A DNA stretch of 64,000 nucleotides from positions 18,502-82,501 of the forward strand of contig CAVXWL010000036.1 of NCBI GenBank assembly GCA_963765365.1, read 5' to 3'. The position numbers and the translations under genes are program-made. Shown one piece after another: positions 18,181-39,155 of this stretch. The notes below the pieces were generated by a model that was not told the DNA's origin, made no database searches, and saw only the letters and a program-made list of their open reading frames with translations. The DNA comes from an uncultured Alphaproteobacteria bacterium (GTDB lineage Bacteria > Pseudomonadota > Alphaproteobacteria > Rhizobiales > Xanthobacteraceae). Every line of letters begins with the position of its first letter. The stretch's first letter is position 1.

Positions 18181-18944
18181 CGTGCACGGCCTTCGAGCTT
18201 CGACACGGCGGTATTGAGGACGGCAACGATCGCGATGACAAAGACGATGTAGGCGAACATGCGCGCCGTATCCATGTCTTCGGCGAGGTTGACGATGCGG
18301 TGCCCCAGGCCGGCGAACGAGGCGATGGTCTCACTGGCTATCACCGACAACAGCGCGACAGTGAAACCCATGCGCAGCCCCGCCAGTACGACCGGCAGCG
18401 CGCCGGGCAGCAGCACGTGGCGGAACATCTGCAGGTCGCCTGCTCCCATCGACCGCGCCGCTGTGACCAGCCTCTGATCGGCATGGCCGAAGCCCGCGAT
18501 CGTGCTCAGCACGATAGGAAAGAAGCTGATCGTGGCGCCAAGTGCGATCTTGGATTCCGGGCCGAGGCCGAACGACATGACGTAAAGCGGCAAGAACAGG
18601 ATGATCGGCACGGCATAGATCGCCGCCAGCAACGGCTCAAAGACCCGGATCATGTAGCGCGAGCGGCTGATCAGATAACCGAGCGACACGCCAAGCGACA
18701 TCGCGATGGCGAAGGCAGCGGCGAGTTCGCCGAGCGTTACCTTAAGGTCGGGGATGAAAGCACCCGAGACGACGATGTCCACCAGTTGATGCCAGGCATC
18801 GACTGGCTTCGGCAGCAGGATACGGCTGACGCCCCACACGCTGGTTGCCAAGAACCACAACAGCAGCAGTGCCGCCAGGAATCCGACCTGCACGAGCCGG
18901 CTCAGCAGGCGGCTTCTGAGGCCGGATGGCGTGCTAGGAGTCAT
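18171..18944 (-). CDS. ABC transporter permease (NitT/TauT-type)
   Basis: Start at MTPSTPSGLRS chosen (11-nt overlap with ATPase stop); paralogous to 17365-18180. Confidence 0.8.
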   Translation of the reverse strand: MTPSTPSGLRSRLLSRLVQVGFLAALLLLWFLATSVWGVSRILLPKPVDAWHQLVDIVVSGAFIPDLKVTLGELAAAFAIAMSLGVSLGYLISRSRYMIRVFEPLLAAIYAVPIILFLPLYVMSFGLGPESKIALGATISFFPIVLSTIAGFGHADQRLVTAARSMGAGDLQMFRHVLLPGALPVVLAGLRMGFTVALLSVIASETIASFAGLGHRIVNLAEDMDTARMFAYIVFVIAIVAVLNTAVSKLEGRARWR

Positions 18945-29919: not shown

Positions 29920-30561
29920 TCATCTGGATCGCCCAATGCCGAGCGTGTCGGCAATTCGCACCAAATCGGCAACGGAGTGCGCCTCCATTTTTCTCATCAG
30001 GTTATGCCGATGGGCTTTTATGGTGCCTTCGCTGAGGCCGATCCGGGCCGCGGTCTCCTTGTTCATCATTCCTGCAATGACATGGGCCATTACTTCGCGC
30101 TCGCGCTCGCTGAGCATTGCGTAGCGGCGCCGCATTTCCGATAGCTCGTTATCCAACCGCCGTTCCTTGCGATCGCGGGCAAGCGCCGCGCCGACGGCGT
30201 TCAGCACGTCCTGTTCGCGCAGCGGCTTGGTGAGGAAATCTACGGCGCCGGACTTCATGGCGTCCACCGTCATCGGGATGTCGCCATGTCCGGTAATGAA
30301 AATGACGGGAATCTTGTTCCGCGCCTCGATCAGCTCTTTTTGAAAATCAAGGCCGTTTATTCCCGGCATGCGAATGTCCAGTATCAGACAACGCGAATCG
30401 CCGGACGGGCTGCTGCGTAAAAAGTCTTGCACCGATGCGAAAGTGATGCAGCCGAGGCCGACCAATTCAAGCAAATGCTTGAGGCCGCTGCGGACGTCGG
30501 GATCGTCATCCACGACAAAGACCACAGAATCTGCATCGGGCTGGATTAGCGTCGTCGCCAT
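29920..30561 (-). CDS. FixJ/LuxR-type two-component response regulator
   Basis: Start at MATTLIQ; VFVVDDD, LILDIRMPG, DFLTKP receiver plus LSEREREVM..ETAARIGLSEGTIKAHRHNLMRKM HTH. Confidence 0.9.
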   Translation of the reverse strand: MATTLIQPDADSVVFVVDDDPDVRSGLKHLLELVGLGCITFASVQDFLRSSPSGDSRCLILDIRMPGINGLDFQKELIEARNKIPVIFITGHGDIPMTVDAMKSGAVDFLTKPLREQDVLNAVGAALARDRKERRLDNELSEMRRRYAMLSEREREVMAHVIAGMMNKETAARIGLSEGTIKAHRHNLMRKMEAHSVADLVRIADTLGIGRSR

Positions 30562-30842
30562 CAGGACGTCCTTTGAGGGGTCTCTCATAAATATTGAACC
30601 ACGCCGGCCGCGCGGAGAAAACCGCGCGCGGACGCCGATGGCACAATCAACATCAGGAGGAACGGGTTCAGTCATGACCGTTTCGCCCGGCTGCGAATGT
30701 GCGCCCTTCGGCTTTGTCACCGGCCGAGGCTGCGCTGAGGAGTTTCGCCGAACTGGAAGAGGGCGGTCTCCGGGACGCTGGGTACGCGTCCGGCGCACAT
30801 TCTGCTCCAAAGTCCATGTTAAAGAGGGCCGGGGACGAGGCT

Positions 30843-30856
30843 TTGATTTACATCAA
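30843..30856. promoter_or_regulatory. FNR/FixK-type box TTGATTTACATCAA
   Basis: Exact TTGA-N6-TCAA, about 100 nt upstream of the kinase start at 30949. Confidence 0.7.
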
Positions 30857-30948: not shown

Positions 30949-32599
30949 TTGCGACAGCATAAGGCTAATTCATCGACTGCGGAGGCACGCGTGGCCGGAC
31001 GCGGGGCGACCGACGGATTAGATTTCTCGATTGCAACAATTCCGCCGACGCCGCGGCAGCGAAAGCTCGCCGTCGGCGTCGTGGCGGTGCTGCTCGTTGG
31101 ATTTGCGGTTGTCGCTCCGTTCGCCGCGACGCGATTGCCGCGCCTGGACAGTTTCGTTCCCACCGTCGAGGCCATCGTCCTCGTGGCCGACCTCGCGACG
31201 TCAGCACTGTTGTTTAGCCAGTACGCCAATGTGCAGTTGCGCGGCCTCCTGATTTTGGCGGACGGTTATCTTCTCTCGGCGCTGATCGTCGTTCCGCACG
31301 CGCTTTCATATCCGGGCGCATTTGCGCCCGGCGGACTATTCGTCTCGGGACTTCAGGTTACGCCGTGGCTTTATACGGCCTGGCATTTGCTGTTCTCAGT
31401 CGCGGTCCTCGTCTATGCATGTCTCAAGCGCGAGACGCAAAACGATATTTCAGGCGCTGCCACGGCGTATCCTGCGATTTATTGGAATGTCGCTGCGGTC
31501 GCGACCTTCGTCTGTGCGTTTACATGGCTCGTTACGGCGGGAGAAAAGTTCGTACCGCGGCTGATTGCCGACGAGGTCAGCTTTACGCCGATGGCGAGTT
31601 ATGTGACCGGCGTGACCGTGGCGACAACCATTTCTGCGCTTCTGGCACTTTGGGTTCGGCGCAATTCGCTCCTCGATCTTTGGCTCATGGTTGCAACCGT
31701 TGCGGCGCTCGTTGAACAGGCGATCGTCAGCTTATTTATCGGCGGCCGCTTCAGCGTGGGCTTTTACACAAGCCGTCTATTCTCGGTCGTGGTCTCGACG
31801 ATTGTCCTGGTCGCGCTGCTTTCGGAAACGATTACACTTTACGCACGGCTGGTGCGCGCCAACCGCGCGCTGCAGCGTGAGCGCGACAGCAAGCTGCTGA
31901 ATCTCGAAGTGGCCGTGGCGGCGATCGCGCACGAGGTCCGCCAGCCCTTGACCGGCATCGCCACGATGAGCGCGGCCGCACGCCGGTTCCTGTCGCGCGA
32001 ACCGCCGGATATTCCACGCGTTCAGGCGATATTGGATGAGGTCGCAGGCGCCGGCTTTCGCACCAACGAGGTGATTGAAAGTGTCCGCGCGTTGTTCCGG
32101 AGTCCTGAGCAGGATCAGCATCCGGTGGACCTCAACGGCGTGACGCTGGAAGCCCTGCAATTGCTGCGCCGGGACTTCGATGATTACGGTATCATTGTAA
32201 GCACGGAGCTGACATCCGAATTGCCGCTGATCATGGGGAATAAAGGGCAATTGCGGGAGGTCGTCCTGAAATCTGATGCAAAATGCCATCGATGCCATGG
32301 CGGGCGTTATGGATCGGCGGCGGCGCCTGCGCGTCGAGACCGAACGGCGCGAGGGAACGGTTGCAATATCCGTGGAAGATAGCGGTCCTGGGATCGATCC
32401 AAAAAGTCTGCCGGGCATCTTCGATCCGTTTGTGACCACAAAGACGAATGGCATGGGATTGGGCCTCGCCATCTCGCAGATAATCGTCGAACGACATAAC
32501 GGCCAGCTTGCGGTGGTCCCCGGCGCCGTCCGTGGTGCGCGATTTCAAGTCACGTTTCCGATCAAACCAGCAAGCGATGCGGCGGGGGCAACCGGTTAA
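30949..32599 (+). pseudogene. Membrane sensor histidine kinase, frameshifted between HisKA and HATPase (A-run 32269-32271)
   Basis: Multi-TM N-terminal half, H-box AHEVRQPLTGI, then GQLREVVL | NLMQNAIDAM..DSGPGI..GMGLGLA continues in the next frame (ORF 32276-32599); CTGAAATCTGATG would read LNLM with one A fewer. Confidence 0.8.
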
Positions 32600-34797: not shown

Positions 34798-35253
34798 TTA
34801 CTTGATCGATTTTTGCGATGACCATCCGCGGCCGGCGATGGTCAGGCCGCCGAGATCAGGCACGATCTTTCCGGTGTCGCGACCGTGCAATTCTACAACG
34901 ACGCCTTTGGTGTTCTTCAGCCTTGCCGGGTGTGCCGCGGTGGCAACGGCAGAGTTGCCTTCAGGGCCAGCATAAGGGCCCAGAATGTCGGACGGGCTTT
35001 GCAAATTTGTAGCCCTGCCGACCAGATAGCTCCGCGCGGACTTGAATTTGCTGGCGTCGATGCCACCGACATCGATGCGATATCGGCGACCATGATAGAA
35101 CAGGCTGCCGCTGCCCTCGATGTGGGCGCCCGATTTTATGAATATGATGTGGAGCTGGCCGTCCTCCGCAAACGACGGCTTCATCGCGGCGCCGAGCAAG
35201 GTAATTGCGGCGGCGGATGCGGCAATAAAATTCCTTGGTCGTGATCCAAGCAT
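34798..35253 (-). CDS. Secreted Gly-rich conserved hypothetical protein (paralog of 26259-26699)
   Basis: Internal Met MLGSRPRNFIAASAAAITLLGAAMKPSFA is a signal peptide; its ATG overlaps the repaired GNAT stop (TGATG at 35251-35255). Confidence 0.6.
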   Translation of the reverse strand: MLGSRPRNFIAASAAAITLLGAAMKPSFAEDGQLHIIFIKSGAHIEGSGSLFYHGRRYRIDVGGIDASKFKSARSYLVGRATNLQSPSDILGPYAGPEGNSAVATAAHPARLKNTKGVVVELHGRDTGKIVPDLGGLTIAGRGWSSQKSIK

Positions 35254-35823
35254 CAATTGACGCCGTGGTTCAGGGGTTTCTCGGCCGGCGCGCTTTGCGG
35301 ATGCAGGTAAAGCGTCACGTTTATCGAGTCCGAACTCACGCTTGGTGCTGATGCGAACGCCGGCGCGCTCGAATATCTTCAGCATGGGTGTGTTCGCCGG
35401 CAGCACATGCGCCAAAAGTTCATCAAGTCCAGCATTCCGCGCGATCGTGATGACATGACGCATAAGAACTGAGCCGATGCCCAAACCCTGATATCGATCG
35501 ACAACCGTAAATGCGACCTCGGCCTGCCGCGGGTTCTCGACCACGTAACGTGCACCGCCGGCGATCGTCGGTTTCCCATTGTCCTCAATGACCGCGACGA
35601 GCGCGACATGCTTGATGAAATCGATGTCGAGGAAGAATGAACGCTCTTTTTCAGTGAAATGGCGCTTAGCCGCGAAAAACCGCCGATAGAGCGACTGACT
35701 GCTCACCCGGTCGACGGCCGCAAGATAGTCATCCCGATCTTCCGGCCGCAGCGCGCGGACGGTCAGGCGACGTCCGTCGCCAAGTGCCTCTATTGCCGAA
35801 TAATATGCGGCATTCGGTTCCAT
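35253..35823 (-). pseudogene. GNAT family N-acetyltransferase with C-terminal frameshift (near 35334), giving an apparent fusion ORF
   Basis: RYQGLGIGSVLMRHV acetyl-CoA motif; after ..STKRE the next frame reads SDSINVTLYLHPQSAPAEKPLNHGVN-stop. Confidence 0.7.
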
Positions 35824-35861
35824 GTTTGGCCGAGATTGGGACAGCAGCGTTCTGGATAGCA

Positions 35862-35875
35862 TTGATCTATATCAA
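35862..35875. promoter_or_regulatory. FNR/FixK-type box TTGATCTATATCAA
   Basis: Exact TTGA-N6-TCAA between the GNAT gene (-) and 35931 (+), about 60 nt before the ATG at 35931. Confidence 0.7.
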
Positions 35876-35930
35876 ACGCACAATTCGGCCCGGCCGCTAA
35901 ATTCGCCGGTCAGCCGGCAAGGAGGAAGCG

Positions 35931-37427
35931 ATGATCCCAAAAATAACAAGATCGATCGTGTTTGCGGTCTTTGTTCTGTTGCCGTTTGCCGCTCTGGCGC
36001 AGGGATCGCCGCCACCGGCCGCGGCGCCGTCCTCCCAGACGCTTCTCAAACCGGAACAGCTCGACGCGCTGGTCGCGCCGATTGCTCTTTATCCGGACAA
36101 TCTCCTGTCGCAGGTGCTGATGGCGTCGACTTATCCGCTTGAAGTCGTGCATGCGGAACGTTGGCTTGAGGCCAACAAGAAGCTCTCGGGTGAGCAGCTT
36201 GAGGTCGCTGTCGCCAAGCAGGATTGGGACGACAGCATAAAATCGCTGGTAGCGACGCCAAGCGTGCTTGCCATGATGAGCGAGAAGCTTGATTGGACCC
36301 AGAAACTGGGCAACGCGGTCGTCGGGCAACAGCCGGATGTGATGGATGCCGTCCAGCGGCTGCGTGCCAAGGCGCAAGCGAATGACAAATTACAATCGAC
36401 CAAGGAGCAAAAGGTCACGGTGACTCAGTCACAAGGCAAGCAGGTCATTGCCATCGCGCCGGCCGACCCGAATACGGTCTATGTGCCGTATTACAATCCC
36501 GCCGTCGTCTATGGGTCGTGGCCGTATCCGTCCTATCCCCCGTATTATTGGCCGCCACCCGGTTATATCGCCGGCGGTCTCATCGCGACGGGTCTGGCTT
36601 TCGGCGCGGGCTACGCGCTCGGCCGGTGGGCGTCAGGGGGCTATTGGGGCGGCAGCGTCAATTGGAGCAACAACAATATCACCATAAACCGGCCTGGCGG
36701 CGGCGGCGGCAATTGGAACCGCGGGGCACATATCGAGCATCGCGCCGGTAATCGCGGCAACCGCCAACTCGATTTCCGCGGCCGCAACGGTCAACAGGTG
36801 ATCCGGCCGGGTAACGATCGCGGCAATCTCGGCAATCGCAACCATGCGAGTACCCGTCCGTCGGGCGGCAATCGTCCACACGCGGGCCATCGTCCAGCCG
36901 GCGGCAACCGTCCACACACGGGTCATCGTCCGGCCGGCGGTAATCGTCCTCATGCGGGCCATCGTCCAGCGGGTGGCAACCGTGGCGGGCATGCCGGCAA
37001 TCGCGTCCAGCATAGGGCGGCTGGTGGTGGCGGCCATCGCGGCGGCGGCGGCGGTCATCGCGGTGGTGGCGGTGGAGGCCATCGTGGCGGCGGCGGCGGC
37101 CATCGCGGTGGTGGCGGCGGCGGCGGCCATCGCGGTGGTGGCGGCGGTGGACGGCGGTCCGACATCAGGCTCAAGCACGACATCGTGCTTGTCGGTCGCC
37201 TCGATAACGGGTTGGGCGTCTACCGGTTCGTCTACAACGGTGGCAACAAGGCCTATGTCGGCGTGATGGCGCAGGAAGTTCAGCAGGTCATGCCGCAGGC
37301 CGTCGAGCGCGGAGCGGACGGCTACCTTCGGGTGCATTACGAAAAACTCGGCCTGAAATTCGAAAGCTATCGGCACTGGCTCCAATCCGGATCGCACCTG
37401 CCGACCGCAGTCGGCTACCGCCAGTGA
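35931..37427 (+). CDS. DUF3300-type secreted protein with His/Gly/Arg-rich repeats and a C-terminal tail-fibre-type intramolecular chaperone (Peptidase_S74-like) domain
   Basis: Signal peptide ..PFAALAQG; LDALVAPIALYPD..LL.QVL.ASTYPLEVV (DUF3300 hallmark); residues from 37158: SDIRLKHDIVLVGRLDNGLGVYRFVY..YVGVMAQEVQQVMPQAV..DGYLRVHYEKLG. Confidence 0.75.
   Translation: MIPKITRSIVFAVFVLLPFAALAQGSPPPAAAPSSQTLLKPEQLDALVAPIALYPDNLLSQVLMASTYPLEVVHAERWLEANKKLSGEQLEVAVAKQDWDDSIKSLVATPSVLAMMSEKLDWTQKLGNAVVGQQPDVMDAVQRLRAKAQANDKLQSTKEQKVTVTQSQGKQVIAIAPADPNTVYVPYYNPAVVYGSWPYPSYPPYYWPPPGYIAGGLIATGLAFGAGYALGRWASGGYWGGSVNWSNNNITINRPGGGGGNWNRGAHIEHRAGNRGNRQLDFRGRNGQQVIRPGNDRGNLGNRNHASTRPSGGNRPHAGHRPAGGNRPHTGHRPAGGNRPHAGHRPAGGNRGGHAGNRVQHRAAGGGGHRGGGGGHRGGGGGGHRGGGGGHRGGGGGGGHRGGGGGGRRSDIRLKHDIVLVGRLDNGLGVYRFVYNGGNKAYVGVMAQEVQQVMPQAVERGADGYLRVHYEKLGLKFESYRHWLQSGSHLPTAVGYRQ
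36864..36971 (+). repeat. 3 x 36-nt in-frame tandem repeat (GGNRPH[A/T]GHRPA)
   Basis: Three near-identical 36-nt units read directly from the sequence. Confidence 0.9.
37023..37151 (+). repeat. Degenerate in-frame (Gly4-7-His-Arg) coding microsatellite, about 6 units
   Basis: GGGGHRGGGGGHRGGGGGGHRGGGGGHRGGGGGGGHRGGGGGG encoded by GGY/CAT/CGY runs. Confidence 0.85.
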
Positions 37428-37436
37428 CAATGCCGA

Positions 37437-39155
37437 TCAGCGCGCTTCGCCTTCGGCCGCGGTAAGACTGCTCAACAGGCTGTCGAGCGTTATCACGCGC
37501 GCGAGGCCGCCGACTTTTTCACCGAGTCCATCGGCACGAAGAAGGTCGCGCACGCGGCCGCGCGCGCCGACGATGCGCAACACGATATTGTAAGGGGCAA
37601 GCTCGCCATGCAGTTGATGCAGCATCCGCGACCCTGCAAGATCGACATAAGGCGAGGCGGAGAGGTCGCAGACCACGGCGCGAATATTGCGGAATCCGAG
37701 CTGCCGGACACGATCAAGAACCAGGTGCAGCACCGGGTCGGCGTTGACATAAAGCAGTGAGGCTTCCGGACGAAACGCCAGCACATGCGGCAAATTCTCG
37801 TTTTCCGGATGCCGGTCGAGGTCGGAATAGCTGTGTGTGCCGGGAACGCGACCTAGAAACGCAACGTGTGGCTGTGAGGCGCGGGCGACCAACATCAAAA
37901 GCGAAATGCCCGCGGCGAGGAGCATGCCCTGCATGATCCCTAGAAGCAGCACCGCGCAAAGAGCGACAGCCGCCGCGTAGAAATCCATTTTGCTGATGCG
38001 CCATGTCCGGTAGAGCGACCGCACATCGACGAGCCCGATCACGGCCGTGAAGACAACCGCTGCCAACACCGCCTTGGGGAGATTCTCCAGAAACCCCGTC
38101 AGAAACATGAGGCACAGCGCGAGCGTGATCGAAGCGAAAATCAGGGATAGCGGCGTGCGGGCGCCGGCTTTGTCGTTGACGGCCGATTGCGACAGGCCCC
38201 CGGCGACCGGGTAGCCCTGACCAAGCGCCGCCGCCAAATTCGCCGCGCCGAGGCCGAGAAGCTCCTGCCGGGGATCGAGCTCGTAGCCGTGCTTGGCGGC
38301 GAAGGCGCGCGCCGCCGAAACGCCCTCGATGTAAGCGAGCAGGAGGCATCCCGCTGCCAGCGGGAAGATCCCCTCGACGTCCCGTAAACGTAGATCCGGT
38401 CCGCTTAGCGCCGGAAGCCCGGGCGGGATCTTTCCTGTAACCGCGACACCGAGAGCGGACAGTCCGAAGACCGAAGCGATGATGATGGCCACCGCGACAA
38501 CCACGAGCGCGATCGGCCTTCCCGGCATGAAGCGATCGCCCAGCAGAAGGGCCGCAATCGCCAGAACGCCAATTGCGAGCACCAGAGGCTGCGTTTGGCC
38601 GAGATGCTCGGCAAAGAGCAGGATGCGCTCAAAAAAATTGTGCCCGCCGCCCGGAATACCAAACAGGCTGGGCAACTGAGTCATGATGATGGTAAGGCCC
38701 GCGCCGGCCTTAAAGCCGAGCAGGATGCTGTCGCTGATCAGGCGCACCAACATACTCAGACGCAGAAGCCAGGAAATTGCGCACAGCAATGCGACGGTGA
38801 ACGCCGCGAGGCTTGCGATCGCGATATATCGCTGTGCATCGCCACCGGCCATGGTGACGACGGTGGCGGCTATCATCAACGAGATCGCCGAGGTCGGTCC
38901 GACTGCGAGTTGGCGCGACGAGCCAAAAAGCGCGTAGCCGATCCCGCCGAGGAGATAGCCATAGATGCCGACCTGCGGCGGCAGTTCCGCCAATGCTGCA
39001 TAGGCCAACGAGACCGGAATGGCGTAGGCGGCGAGTGTCACGCCGGCGATCAGGTCGTGCGGCAACCACTCCTTTTGATAGGTCGCGAGCCACCGCACCG
39101 GCGGCAGATAGCTGAACCGAGCAGACCGATCCTTGTGCTGTGCTGACTCTTCCAT
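37437..39155 (-). CDS. SulP family inorganic anion transporter with C-terminal STAS domain
   Basis: 572 aa; DL.AG.T.A...IP..LAYA.LA.LPP..GLY N-terminal SulP signature, anti-sigma-antagonist-like tail. Confidence 0.9.
   Translation of the reverse strand: MEESAQHKDRSARFSYLPPVRWLATYQKEWLPHDLIAGVTLAAYAIPVSLAYAALAELPPQVGIYGYLLGGIGYALFGSSRQLAVGPTSAISLMIAATVVTMAGGDAQRYIAIASLAAFTVALLCAISWLLRLSMLVRLISDSILLGFKAGAGLTIIMTQLPSLFGIPGGGHNFFERILLFAEHLGQTQPLVLAIGVLAIAALLLGDRFMPGRPIALVVVAVAIIIASVFGLSALGVAVTGKIPPGLPALSGPDLRLRDVEGIFPLAAGCLLLAYIEGVSAARAFAAKHGYELDPRQELLGLGAANLAAALGQGYPVAGGLSQSAVNDKAGARTPLSLIFASITLALCLMFLTGFLENLPKAVLAAVVFTAVIGLVDVRSLYRTWRISKMDFYAAAVALCAVLLLGIMQGMLLAAGISLLMLVARASQPHVAFLGRVPGTHSYSDLDRHPENENLPHVLAFRPEASLLYVNADPVLHLVLDRVRQLGFRNIRAVVCDLSASPYVDLAGSRMLHQLHGELAPYNIVLRIVGARGRVRDLLRADGLGEKVGGLARVITLDSLLSSLTAAEGEAR

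Follow-up and report, generated by a model that had tools for sequence, protein, structure and literature searches.

Peptidase_S74 domains, also called intramolecular chaperone auto-processing (ICA) domains, are known as folding nuclei of rigid phage and bacterial fibres. They share a Ser-x4-Lys dyad, represented by S911/K916 in endoNF, S587/K592 in MyRF and S1264/K1269 in T5 pb1; in these proteins replacement of the Ser by Ala blocks the cut, and the scissile bond lies N-terminal of the Ser (PMC8326128, PMC4690869), namely Thr1263-Ser1264 in T5 pb1 and P586-S587 in MyRF (PMC4690869, PMC8326128). In MyRF, trimerisation is driven by a long C-terminal coiled coil, and cleavage depends on trimerisation, not on contacts with the upstream stalk (PMC8326128). 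Self-cleavage has also been proven for S74 domains of proteins with a signal peptide, the MAT fibres of Bdellovibrio, by means of the S782A mutant of Bd3182 (PMC10769870). DUF3300 is a widespread exported family of uncharacterised function. Genes for DUF3300 and DUF2950 proteins, usually paired, have been reported as induced in legume nodules (PMC4653623), and the E. coli gene yacH is reported to be regulated by CpxR, its deletion raising survival in protamine (PMC9600279). One gene in the DNA analysed here joins the two families. The window, meaning the whole stretch of 64,000 nucleotides, covers positions 18,502 to 82,501 of contig CAVXWL010000036.1 (assembly GCA_963765365.1) from an uncultured alphaproteobacterium of the Xanthobacteraceae. 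Its product starts with a Sec-type signal peptide, followed by the DUF3300 domain and by a disordered tail rich in Gly, Arg and His that contains in-frame repeats; the S74 domain at the C-terminus thus stands on a disordered tail.

What is new is that the predicted cut site of the S74 domain matches the native end of unfused DUF3300 relatives, a coincidence that turns self-cleavage into a sharp and cheaply checked prediction. The reading considered probable is that a FixK/FNR-type regulator induces an exported DUF3300 protein, whose S74 domain would trimerise and then cut itself off.

The S74 domain and the DUF3300 head

Judged by its sequence, the C-terminal region is a genuine short S74 domain. 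Pfam Peptidase_S74 (PF13884) matches residues 410-458 at E 7.7e-8 and 33 bits, the cut-off being 22, covering model positions 1-57 of 58, and the domain opens with SDIRLKHDI, which begins at 37158. The SDxxxK motif is kept in all 209 relatives collected, and its Ser-Lys spacing is identical to that of endoNF, MyRF and T5 pb1. An earlier note on this DNA had proposed an S74-type C-terminal domain with its catalytic Ser at 37158 behind a DUF3300 half. In the hidden Markov model searches that it called for, both domains score above the Pfam cut-offs, and the Pfam match and the invariant motif bear this proposal out.

The AlphaFold2 model of the domain, a monomer, has a predicted local distance difference test (pLDDT) value of 87.9, and Foldseek aligns it with predicted models of phage ICA domains at E 1.8e-6, with a template modelling (TM) score of 0.71 and a root-mean-square deviation of 1.4 Å over 74 columns. 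A tblastn search of phage genomes returned 100 records with a similar C-terminal domain; in Brucella phage Tb_23 the last 65 residues of a protein share 47% identity with the S74 domain, and their counterpart in Rhizobium phage RHph_N2 shares 48% (pairwise over 64-67 residues, E 1e-18 and 5e-12). When a profile of the domain alone was run against PDB sequences, the top matches were MyRF (7dc3), a phage long tail fibre (6f45) and GA-1 (3gud), at borderline E values of 0.0038-0.0042. These three alignments are mutually independent and are anchored on the SDxRxK and AQEV motifs, and the 3gud chain starts with SDERHK. A full-length family profile searched against PDB sequences was swamped by the Gly-Ser linkers of single-chain variable fragments. 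At 89 aa the domain is a short variant, in which the AQEV helix is followed in the model by only short helices at residues 470-473 and 480-485. It also has a conserved 25-residue extension (F477, Y480, W483, G487, P491) that is missing from the phage versions. By analogy with characterised domains, S74 would trimerise the upstream part of the protein.

The N-terminal half belongs to DUF3300 (PF11737), which matches with 278.7 bits against a gathering cut-off of 25. In the full-length AlphaFold2 model, pLDDT exceeds 90 over about residues 40-210, with helices at 41-150 followed by strands at 160-252. Foldseek found nothing in the PDB for this model at E <= 0.001, so the absence of a solved relative leaves no functional hint for DUF3300. 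The N-terminus, MIPKITRSIVFAVFVLLPFAALA followed by QG, exceeds every other stretch of the protein in hydrophobicity (Kyte-Doolittle mean 2.16); an A-x-A signal-peptidase site (A-L-A) can be read in it, Q24 is nearly invariant among 108 homologues, and signal peptidase I is predicted to cut after A23. The description of this half as a secreted DUF3300 protein therefore agrees with both the Pfam match (E 4.3e-83) and the signal peptide, export being predicted from the sequence.

The 498-aa open reading frame (ORF) is a well-conserved real gene; an NCBIfam search of the protein gave no match. The earlier note had named, as what would refute it, two genes joined by a sequence error, and the metagenome-assembled genome is indeed error-prone, with frameshifts in other genes such as a paralogue in locus L001. 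This makes an independent JGI sequence, P0213, important: it is identical save for one extra Gly and two substitutions and keeps the frame, whereas indel errors occur elsewhere in this genome. The best 120 of about 8000 homologues are 407-544 aa long, with both Pfam domains present in every protein except one, and the single-ORF architecture also occurs in isolate genomes of Bradyrhizobium and Afipia. P0213 and these isolate-genome homologues rule out the assembly-artefact reading, whose remaining probability is negligible.

The predicted cut site and the C-terminus of unfused relatives

The bond expected to be cut is R409-S410. In 205 of 209 fused proteins the Ser is directly preceded by RR, after Gly runs (...GGGGRGGGGRR↓SDI...). 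Unfused DUF3300 proteins of other phyla end at just this point. A sample of 120 was drawn from a large protein collection; every one closes its Gly-rich tract with Arg and has at least six Gly in its last 14 residues, the final two residues being RR in 86 and GR in 30; from composition, RR would be expected in about 3%. A second, organism-named set was obtained by scanning one genome per species and comprises 80 loci. Of the 38 fused proteins here, 37 have ...GGRR before the Ser; among the 38 unfused ones, RR is the ending of 24, and most of the others close with HR, GR or RHR.

The phylogenetic position of the unfused proteins adds to this pattern. In a tree of the N-terminal domain (80 sequences: 79 loci plus the window), 40 of 41 fused proteins fall into one well-supported (100/99) Hyphomicrobiales clade. 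Unfused members nested in this clade stop exactly at GGGRR(R): these are L038, L041, L046, L047, L050 and L071, a set made up of Nitrobacter L038, L041 (sister of the fused L040), L046, L047 and two Methyloceanibacter loci. Such endings suggest gain and loss of S74 at the scissile bond itself. The RR is a property of the DUF3300 tail, not of S74, because the third S74 protein of the same genome, L003, has ...SGQP before its Ser.

By sequence comparison, a cut at R409-S410 would thus recreate the C-terminus native to unfused DUF3300 proteins, yielding a mature protein of 40.2 kDa and a fragment of 10.1 kDa (calculated). The coincidence of the predicted cut with the natural end of unfused relatives supports removal of the domain by self-cleavage; this evidence is indirect, and it is independent of the argument from the motif.

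It has to be weighed against the alternative that S74 stays uncut and acts as a permanent trimerisation or anchoring knob on a flexible tail. The short variant lacks a coiled coil, and the 25-residue extension, absent from phages, could have a job of its own, both of which would suit a retained domain. Against this, the Ser and Lys are invariant in all 209 relatives, as expected of a catalytic dyad, the boundary is the native C-terminus of unfused relatives, and all SDxxxK S74 domains so far tested cleave (PMC4690869, PMC8326128, PMC10769870). A permanently attached knob is therefore regarded as improbable, and removal of the domain by self-cleavage is preferred.

Tail, regulation and distribution

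Table 1. Features of the DUF3300-S74 gene and its upstream region, in window coordinates
Feature	Position	Strand	Basis
FixK/FNR-type box TTGATCTATATCAA	35862-35875	+	perfect palindrome, 69 nt before ATG; centre 62.5 nt before ATG
Shine-Dalgarno AGGAGG	35920-35925	+	5 nt before ATG; read from sequence
DUF3300-S74 ORF	35931-37427	+	open frame, 498 aa
Signal peptide, residues 1-23 (…FAALA↓QGSPPP), predicted	35931-35999	+	hydrophobicity, A-L-A motif
DUF3300 domain, residues 41-254	36051-36692	+	Pfam E 4.3e-83
Gly-zipper-like hydrophobic stretch, residues 212-232 (YIAGGLIATGLAFGAGYALGR)	36564-36626	+	Kyte-Doolittle mean 1.46
Disordered basic Gly/Arg/His/Asn tail, residues 255-409, pI 12, end GGGGGGRR	36693-37157	+	pLDDT, composition
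36-nt in-frame repeat x3.3, GGNRPHAGHRPA	36864-36983	+	Tandem Repeats Finder score 170, 82% matches
Gly(4-7)-His-Arg units, GGC/GGT runs	37017-37157	+	Tandem Repeats Finder periods 21, 27, 45
Predicted scissile bond R409-S410, codons CGG TCC	37155-37160	+	RR before Ser in relatives
S74 (ICA) domain, residues 410-498	37158-37424	+	Pfam, motif, model, profiles
Presumed catalytic dyad Ser410 + Lys415	37173-37175 (Lys codon)	+	S410-D-I-R-L-K415
Stop codon TGA	37425-37427	+	end of DUF3300-S74 ORF

The tail between the two domains (Table 1) is 155 residues long, with pLDDT below 50 over residues 270-404 in the full-length AlphaFold2 model, where the S74 part that follows is modelled with confidence once more. 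Its LDFRGRNGQQV motif is conserved and is also found in unfused relatives. Tandem Repeats Finder recovers the repeat-bearing, low-complexity middle that had been described from the sequence, both the 36-nt repeat and the Gly-run/His-Arg units. The suggestion that these tracts vary in length also proved correct, and the variation is in frame: P0213 has one additional Gly, and the closest relatives, P0002 and P0003, have two copies of the 12-aa unit against three here. A collagen-like tail was considered and rejected, since G-X-Y periodicity is absent.

The further suggestion of a His-rich, potentially metal-binding linker found no support in the comparison. The linker of the window protein contains 16 His, and its sequence shows an H-x-x-H spacing in GGNRPHAGHRPA as well as five Gly-run-HR units, so that a metal-binding His/Gly-rich module might be taken as the point of the protein. 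Linkers of relatives, however, contain between 2 and 16 His, with a median of 6, and a count of 16 is found in only 3 of 152. The positions occupied by His here are F, M or A in relatives, and Gly and Arg are the residues conserved instead. Because His-richness is not conserved, metal binding is at most a local feature, unsupported as a function of the DUF3300-S74 family, and it is very doubtful that it is what the protein is for.

Regulation is suggested by the sequence upstream of the gene. The FixK-type box pointed out previously is a perfect palindrome, and 15 related loci also have a perfect box upstream, which in many of those from Bradyrhizobium/Afipia stands at -67 to -70. The window contains four perfect TTGAT-N4-ATCAA boxes against 0.06 expected, a number reached in 0 of 100 shuffles. 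A second perfect box (30843-30856) lies between a gene for a FixJ-like response regulator (29923-30810, minus strand) and one for a MASE4/HisKA sensor kinase (30949-32379, plus strand). The window looks like a low-oxygen island, and the conservation of the box, together with the FixJ-like regulator and kinase that flank another one, makes low-oxygen control of the DUF3300-S74 gene likely. The nodule induction reported for DUF3300 and DUF2950 genes (PMC4653623) also speaks for it. A transcription start site near 35910 would fit class II geometry, with the box centred at -41.5. A promoter and terminator scan gave no signal above shuffles, and no DUF3300 entry was found in the supplements of one microoxia study.

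The immediate neighbours are a divergent GNAT gene upstream and a convergent SulP/STAS transporter gene (37437-39155) downstream. The box overlaps the annotated start codon (35860-35862) of the GNAT ORF (34798-35862, minus strand), so either that start is wrong or the box serves the plus-strand gene only. DUF2950 is not adjacent downstream, and since the next gene converges, the locus has no DUF2950 partner. The same applies to 22 of the 80 tree sequences, some of them on cut contigs. A same-genus genome has one DUF3300-S74 gene and zero DUF2950 genes, which indicates that the fused protein can stand alone. In a neighbourhood clustering of the 80 loci, DUF2950 was the sole neighbour kept from phylum to phylum; the presence of an HlyD-like gene and of a histidine kinase reflects lineage-specific synteny. 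A prophage origin was likewise rejected, the neighbours being metabolic and regulatory genes. Opposite the gene, an antisense ORF of 265 aa (36633-37430, minus strand) is a shadow of the GC-rich Gly tract; its equivalents cluster across 69 related loci and are not to be annotated as genes.

The earlier note knew of no description of the domain combination and asked for a survey of domain architectures. That survey contradicts any idea of rarity. A search with the C-terminal 94 residues yielded 2569 clusters, and in 117 of the best 120 DUF3300 is present as well; JGI names several such proteins 'DUF3300/Chaperone of endosialidase'. The fusion is present in Bradyrhizobium, Afipia, Pseudolabrys, Hyphomicrobium and many metagenome-assembled genomes of Xanthobacteraceae, and it is the commonest form of DUF3300 among the sampled Hyphomicrobiales loci. 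It is absent from all of the about 35 DUF3300 loci that come from other orders and phyla, among which are Nitrospirota, Desulfobacterota, Beta- and Gammaproteobacteria, Acidobacteriota and Planctomycetota. In a survey of 60 genera in the family to which the window belongs, with one genome per genus, 19 had an S74 match and 16 had DUF3300; about ten DUF3300 genes were fused and four were unfused at full length, the remaining S74 matches lying on other proteins. A literature search, in which three papers naming DUF3300 and one naming DUF2950 turned up, returned no paper on the DUF3300-S74 fusion and none linking 'chaperone of endosialidase' with Bradyrhizobium.

Paralogues and related S74 proteins were also observed. 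The genome carries a second DUF3300-S74 paralogue in L001 (G000:C16:408993-412142), readable only across three frames; the breaks are probably assembly indels. The only DUF2950 gene of the genome lies directly downstream of this paralogue, on another contig. L003 (1393-2853, minus strand; G000:C16:227196-230342) is a 486-aa S74 protein whose N-terminal 400 residues match no Pfam family. In another genus of the family, two DUF3300-S74 and DUF2950 pairs stand in tandem (G015:C504:2199-7552). Four small proteins of 196-329 aa (P0215, P0216, P0217 and P0330) have two separate S74 matches each and possibly carry tandem S74 domains.

Proposed maturation and comparison with known systems

The proposed sequence of events begins at low oxygen, when a FixK/FNR-type regulator most likely turns the gene on. 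The protein would be exported by the Sec pathway to the envelope, with removal of the signal peptide after A23. Three S74 copies would then most likely associate and align the three tails in register, and each Ser410-Lys415 dyad would cut its R409-S410 bond. This would release the S74 fragment and leave a mature protein ending in ...GGGGGGRR-COOH, the C-terminus with which the unfused DUF3300 proteins of other phyla are made. S74 may accordingly be seen as a removable assembly or maturation aid that was added to an older protein. As a best guess, the mature protein is a trimer associated with the envelope, and its basic tail would bind a partner protein or some anionic component of the envelope. 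As to why a disordered tail should call for a trimerising chaperone, the simplest reading is that the mature protein acts as a trimer assembled from its C-terminus, or that a free RR end has to be exposed only after assembly. A bolder version holds that S74 sets the C-terminus: only correctly trimerised chains would expose a free ...GGGRR-COOH, which would be conserved across phyla as a recognition or assembly signal in itself, and the poly-Gly runs, aligned by the S74 trimer, would lock into a polyglycine-II-type bundle. This version is a long shot; if it were true, DUF3300 proteins would represent a trimeric envelope element of a new kind, with induction at low oxygen.

Several observations weigh against self-cleavage in an exported trimer. 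The S74 model, a monomer, matches no solved structure in Foldseek (best E 0.76), an outcome to be expected if the solved domains are intertwined trimers. When the C-terminal 100 aa were run as a single sequence against PDB sequences, chance matches alone were obtained. There is no long C-terminal coiled coil, as is also true of the short phage versions, and both trimerisation and cleavage of so short a variant (89 aa) are presumed from the better-known domains. What precedes S74 is a disordered poly-Gly tract with pLDDT below 50, not a beta-helix that requires a folding nucleus. The tail of E. coli YacH is different, so the GGRR end is not universal in DUF3300, and FixK control is read from a single kind of evidence, the conserved box. 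Lastly, residues 212-232 are moderately hydrophobic and the tail has a net charge of +24, and for these reasons the tail and S74 could be cytoplasmic.

This last point leads to a different topology, in which residues 212-232 form a Gly-zipper transmembrane helix, the head is periplasmic, and S74 would trimerise and cut in the cytoplasm, as do MyRF and phage proteins that fold in the cytosol. The stretch may be either part of the fold or a marginal membrane segment. It is hydrophobic in all relatives despite its varying sequence, its Kyte-Doolittle mean is 1.46, GxxxG motifs can be read in it, the charge of the tail agrees with the positive-inside rule, and some relatives are labelled 'membrane protein' by JGI. 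AlphaFold2, however, models it as a strand within the globular DUF3300 domain (pLDDT 72-90), and summing the Hessa biological hydrophobicity scale by hand puts insertion at about +3 kcal/mol, an unfavourable value. In E. coli YacH, Arg and Asp occur in the equivalent stretch, and an acidic run comes after it; YacH is given as extracellular (PMC9600279), and the partner DUF2950 bears a signal peptide (PMC4653623). The membrane-spanning arrangement is a serious rival, with more to be said for it than for the other alternatives, but it is held to be the less likely topology, and export of the full chain is favoured with reasonable confidence. S74 processing is feasible on such an exported chain, because Bdellovibrio MAT fibres, which have signal peptides, undergo it (PMC10769870).

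The boundary match provides the first structural hint for the DUF3300 family, that of trimer formation from the C-terminus. Unless a role for the mature protein comes to light, the benefit to general biology is modest.

Compared with the ICA domains of phages (K1F endosialidase, the L-shaped tail fibre pb1 of T5 and the GA-1 neck appendage), the S74 domain described here is likewise C-terminal and has the SDxxxK motif, the Ser-x4-Lys spacing and the G-V-x-AQE-V helix; its Pfam match is above the cut-off, and its profile matches 3gud, 6f45 and 8hqz. It differs in having 89 residues against 133 in T5 pb1 (PMC4690869) and no long coiled coil. The phage domains are preceded by a triple beta-helix, whereas a disordered poly-Gly/Arg tract precedes S74 here; moreover, this gene is chromosomal and outside a prophage, and its cut is predicted from sequence. 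The closest sequences, with the same short format, are those of the podophages Tb_23 and RHph_N2 (EVC05_012). In these the domain ends about 25 residues earlier, and a hydrophobic Gly-rich stretch, not GGGRR, stands before the Ser. In the two phages the short S74 domain terminates a structural protein of 326-339 aa (L084, 1718-2698, in Tb_23; L085, 1700-2719, in RHph_N2), which is not an obvious tail fibre and whose gene adjoins genes for an N-acetyltransferase and for internal-virion or peptidoglycan-hydrolase proteins.

MyRF shares the Ser-Lys dyad and gives a weak profile match (7dc3). Cleavage in MyRF separates a transcription factor from a membrane anchor on the C-terminal side of the domain, whereas S74 is the last element here and only S74 itself would be released. 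The MAT (mosaic adhesive trimer) fibres of Bdellovibrio bacteriovorus that belong to the S74 subgroup (for example Bd3182, PMC10769870) are similar in being bacterial and chromosomally encoded, with a signal peptide and a C-terminal SDxxxK S74 domain. They are beta-helical proteins of about 1000 aa with a conserved beta-rich N-terminal domain, in contrast to the helical/beta DUF3300 head, disordered tail and lack of a predicted fibre in the present protein. The unfused DUF3300 proteins, usually accompanied by DUF2950 (PMC4653623), have no S74, and the window copy has no adjacent DUF2950; E. coli YacH differs further in its Gln/Arg-repeat tail. These proteins and YacH share with the fused one the signal peptide, the DUF3300 head and a low-complexity tail, and the Gly-rich ...RR end of the unfused proteins is the very sequence that stands before Ser410.

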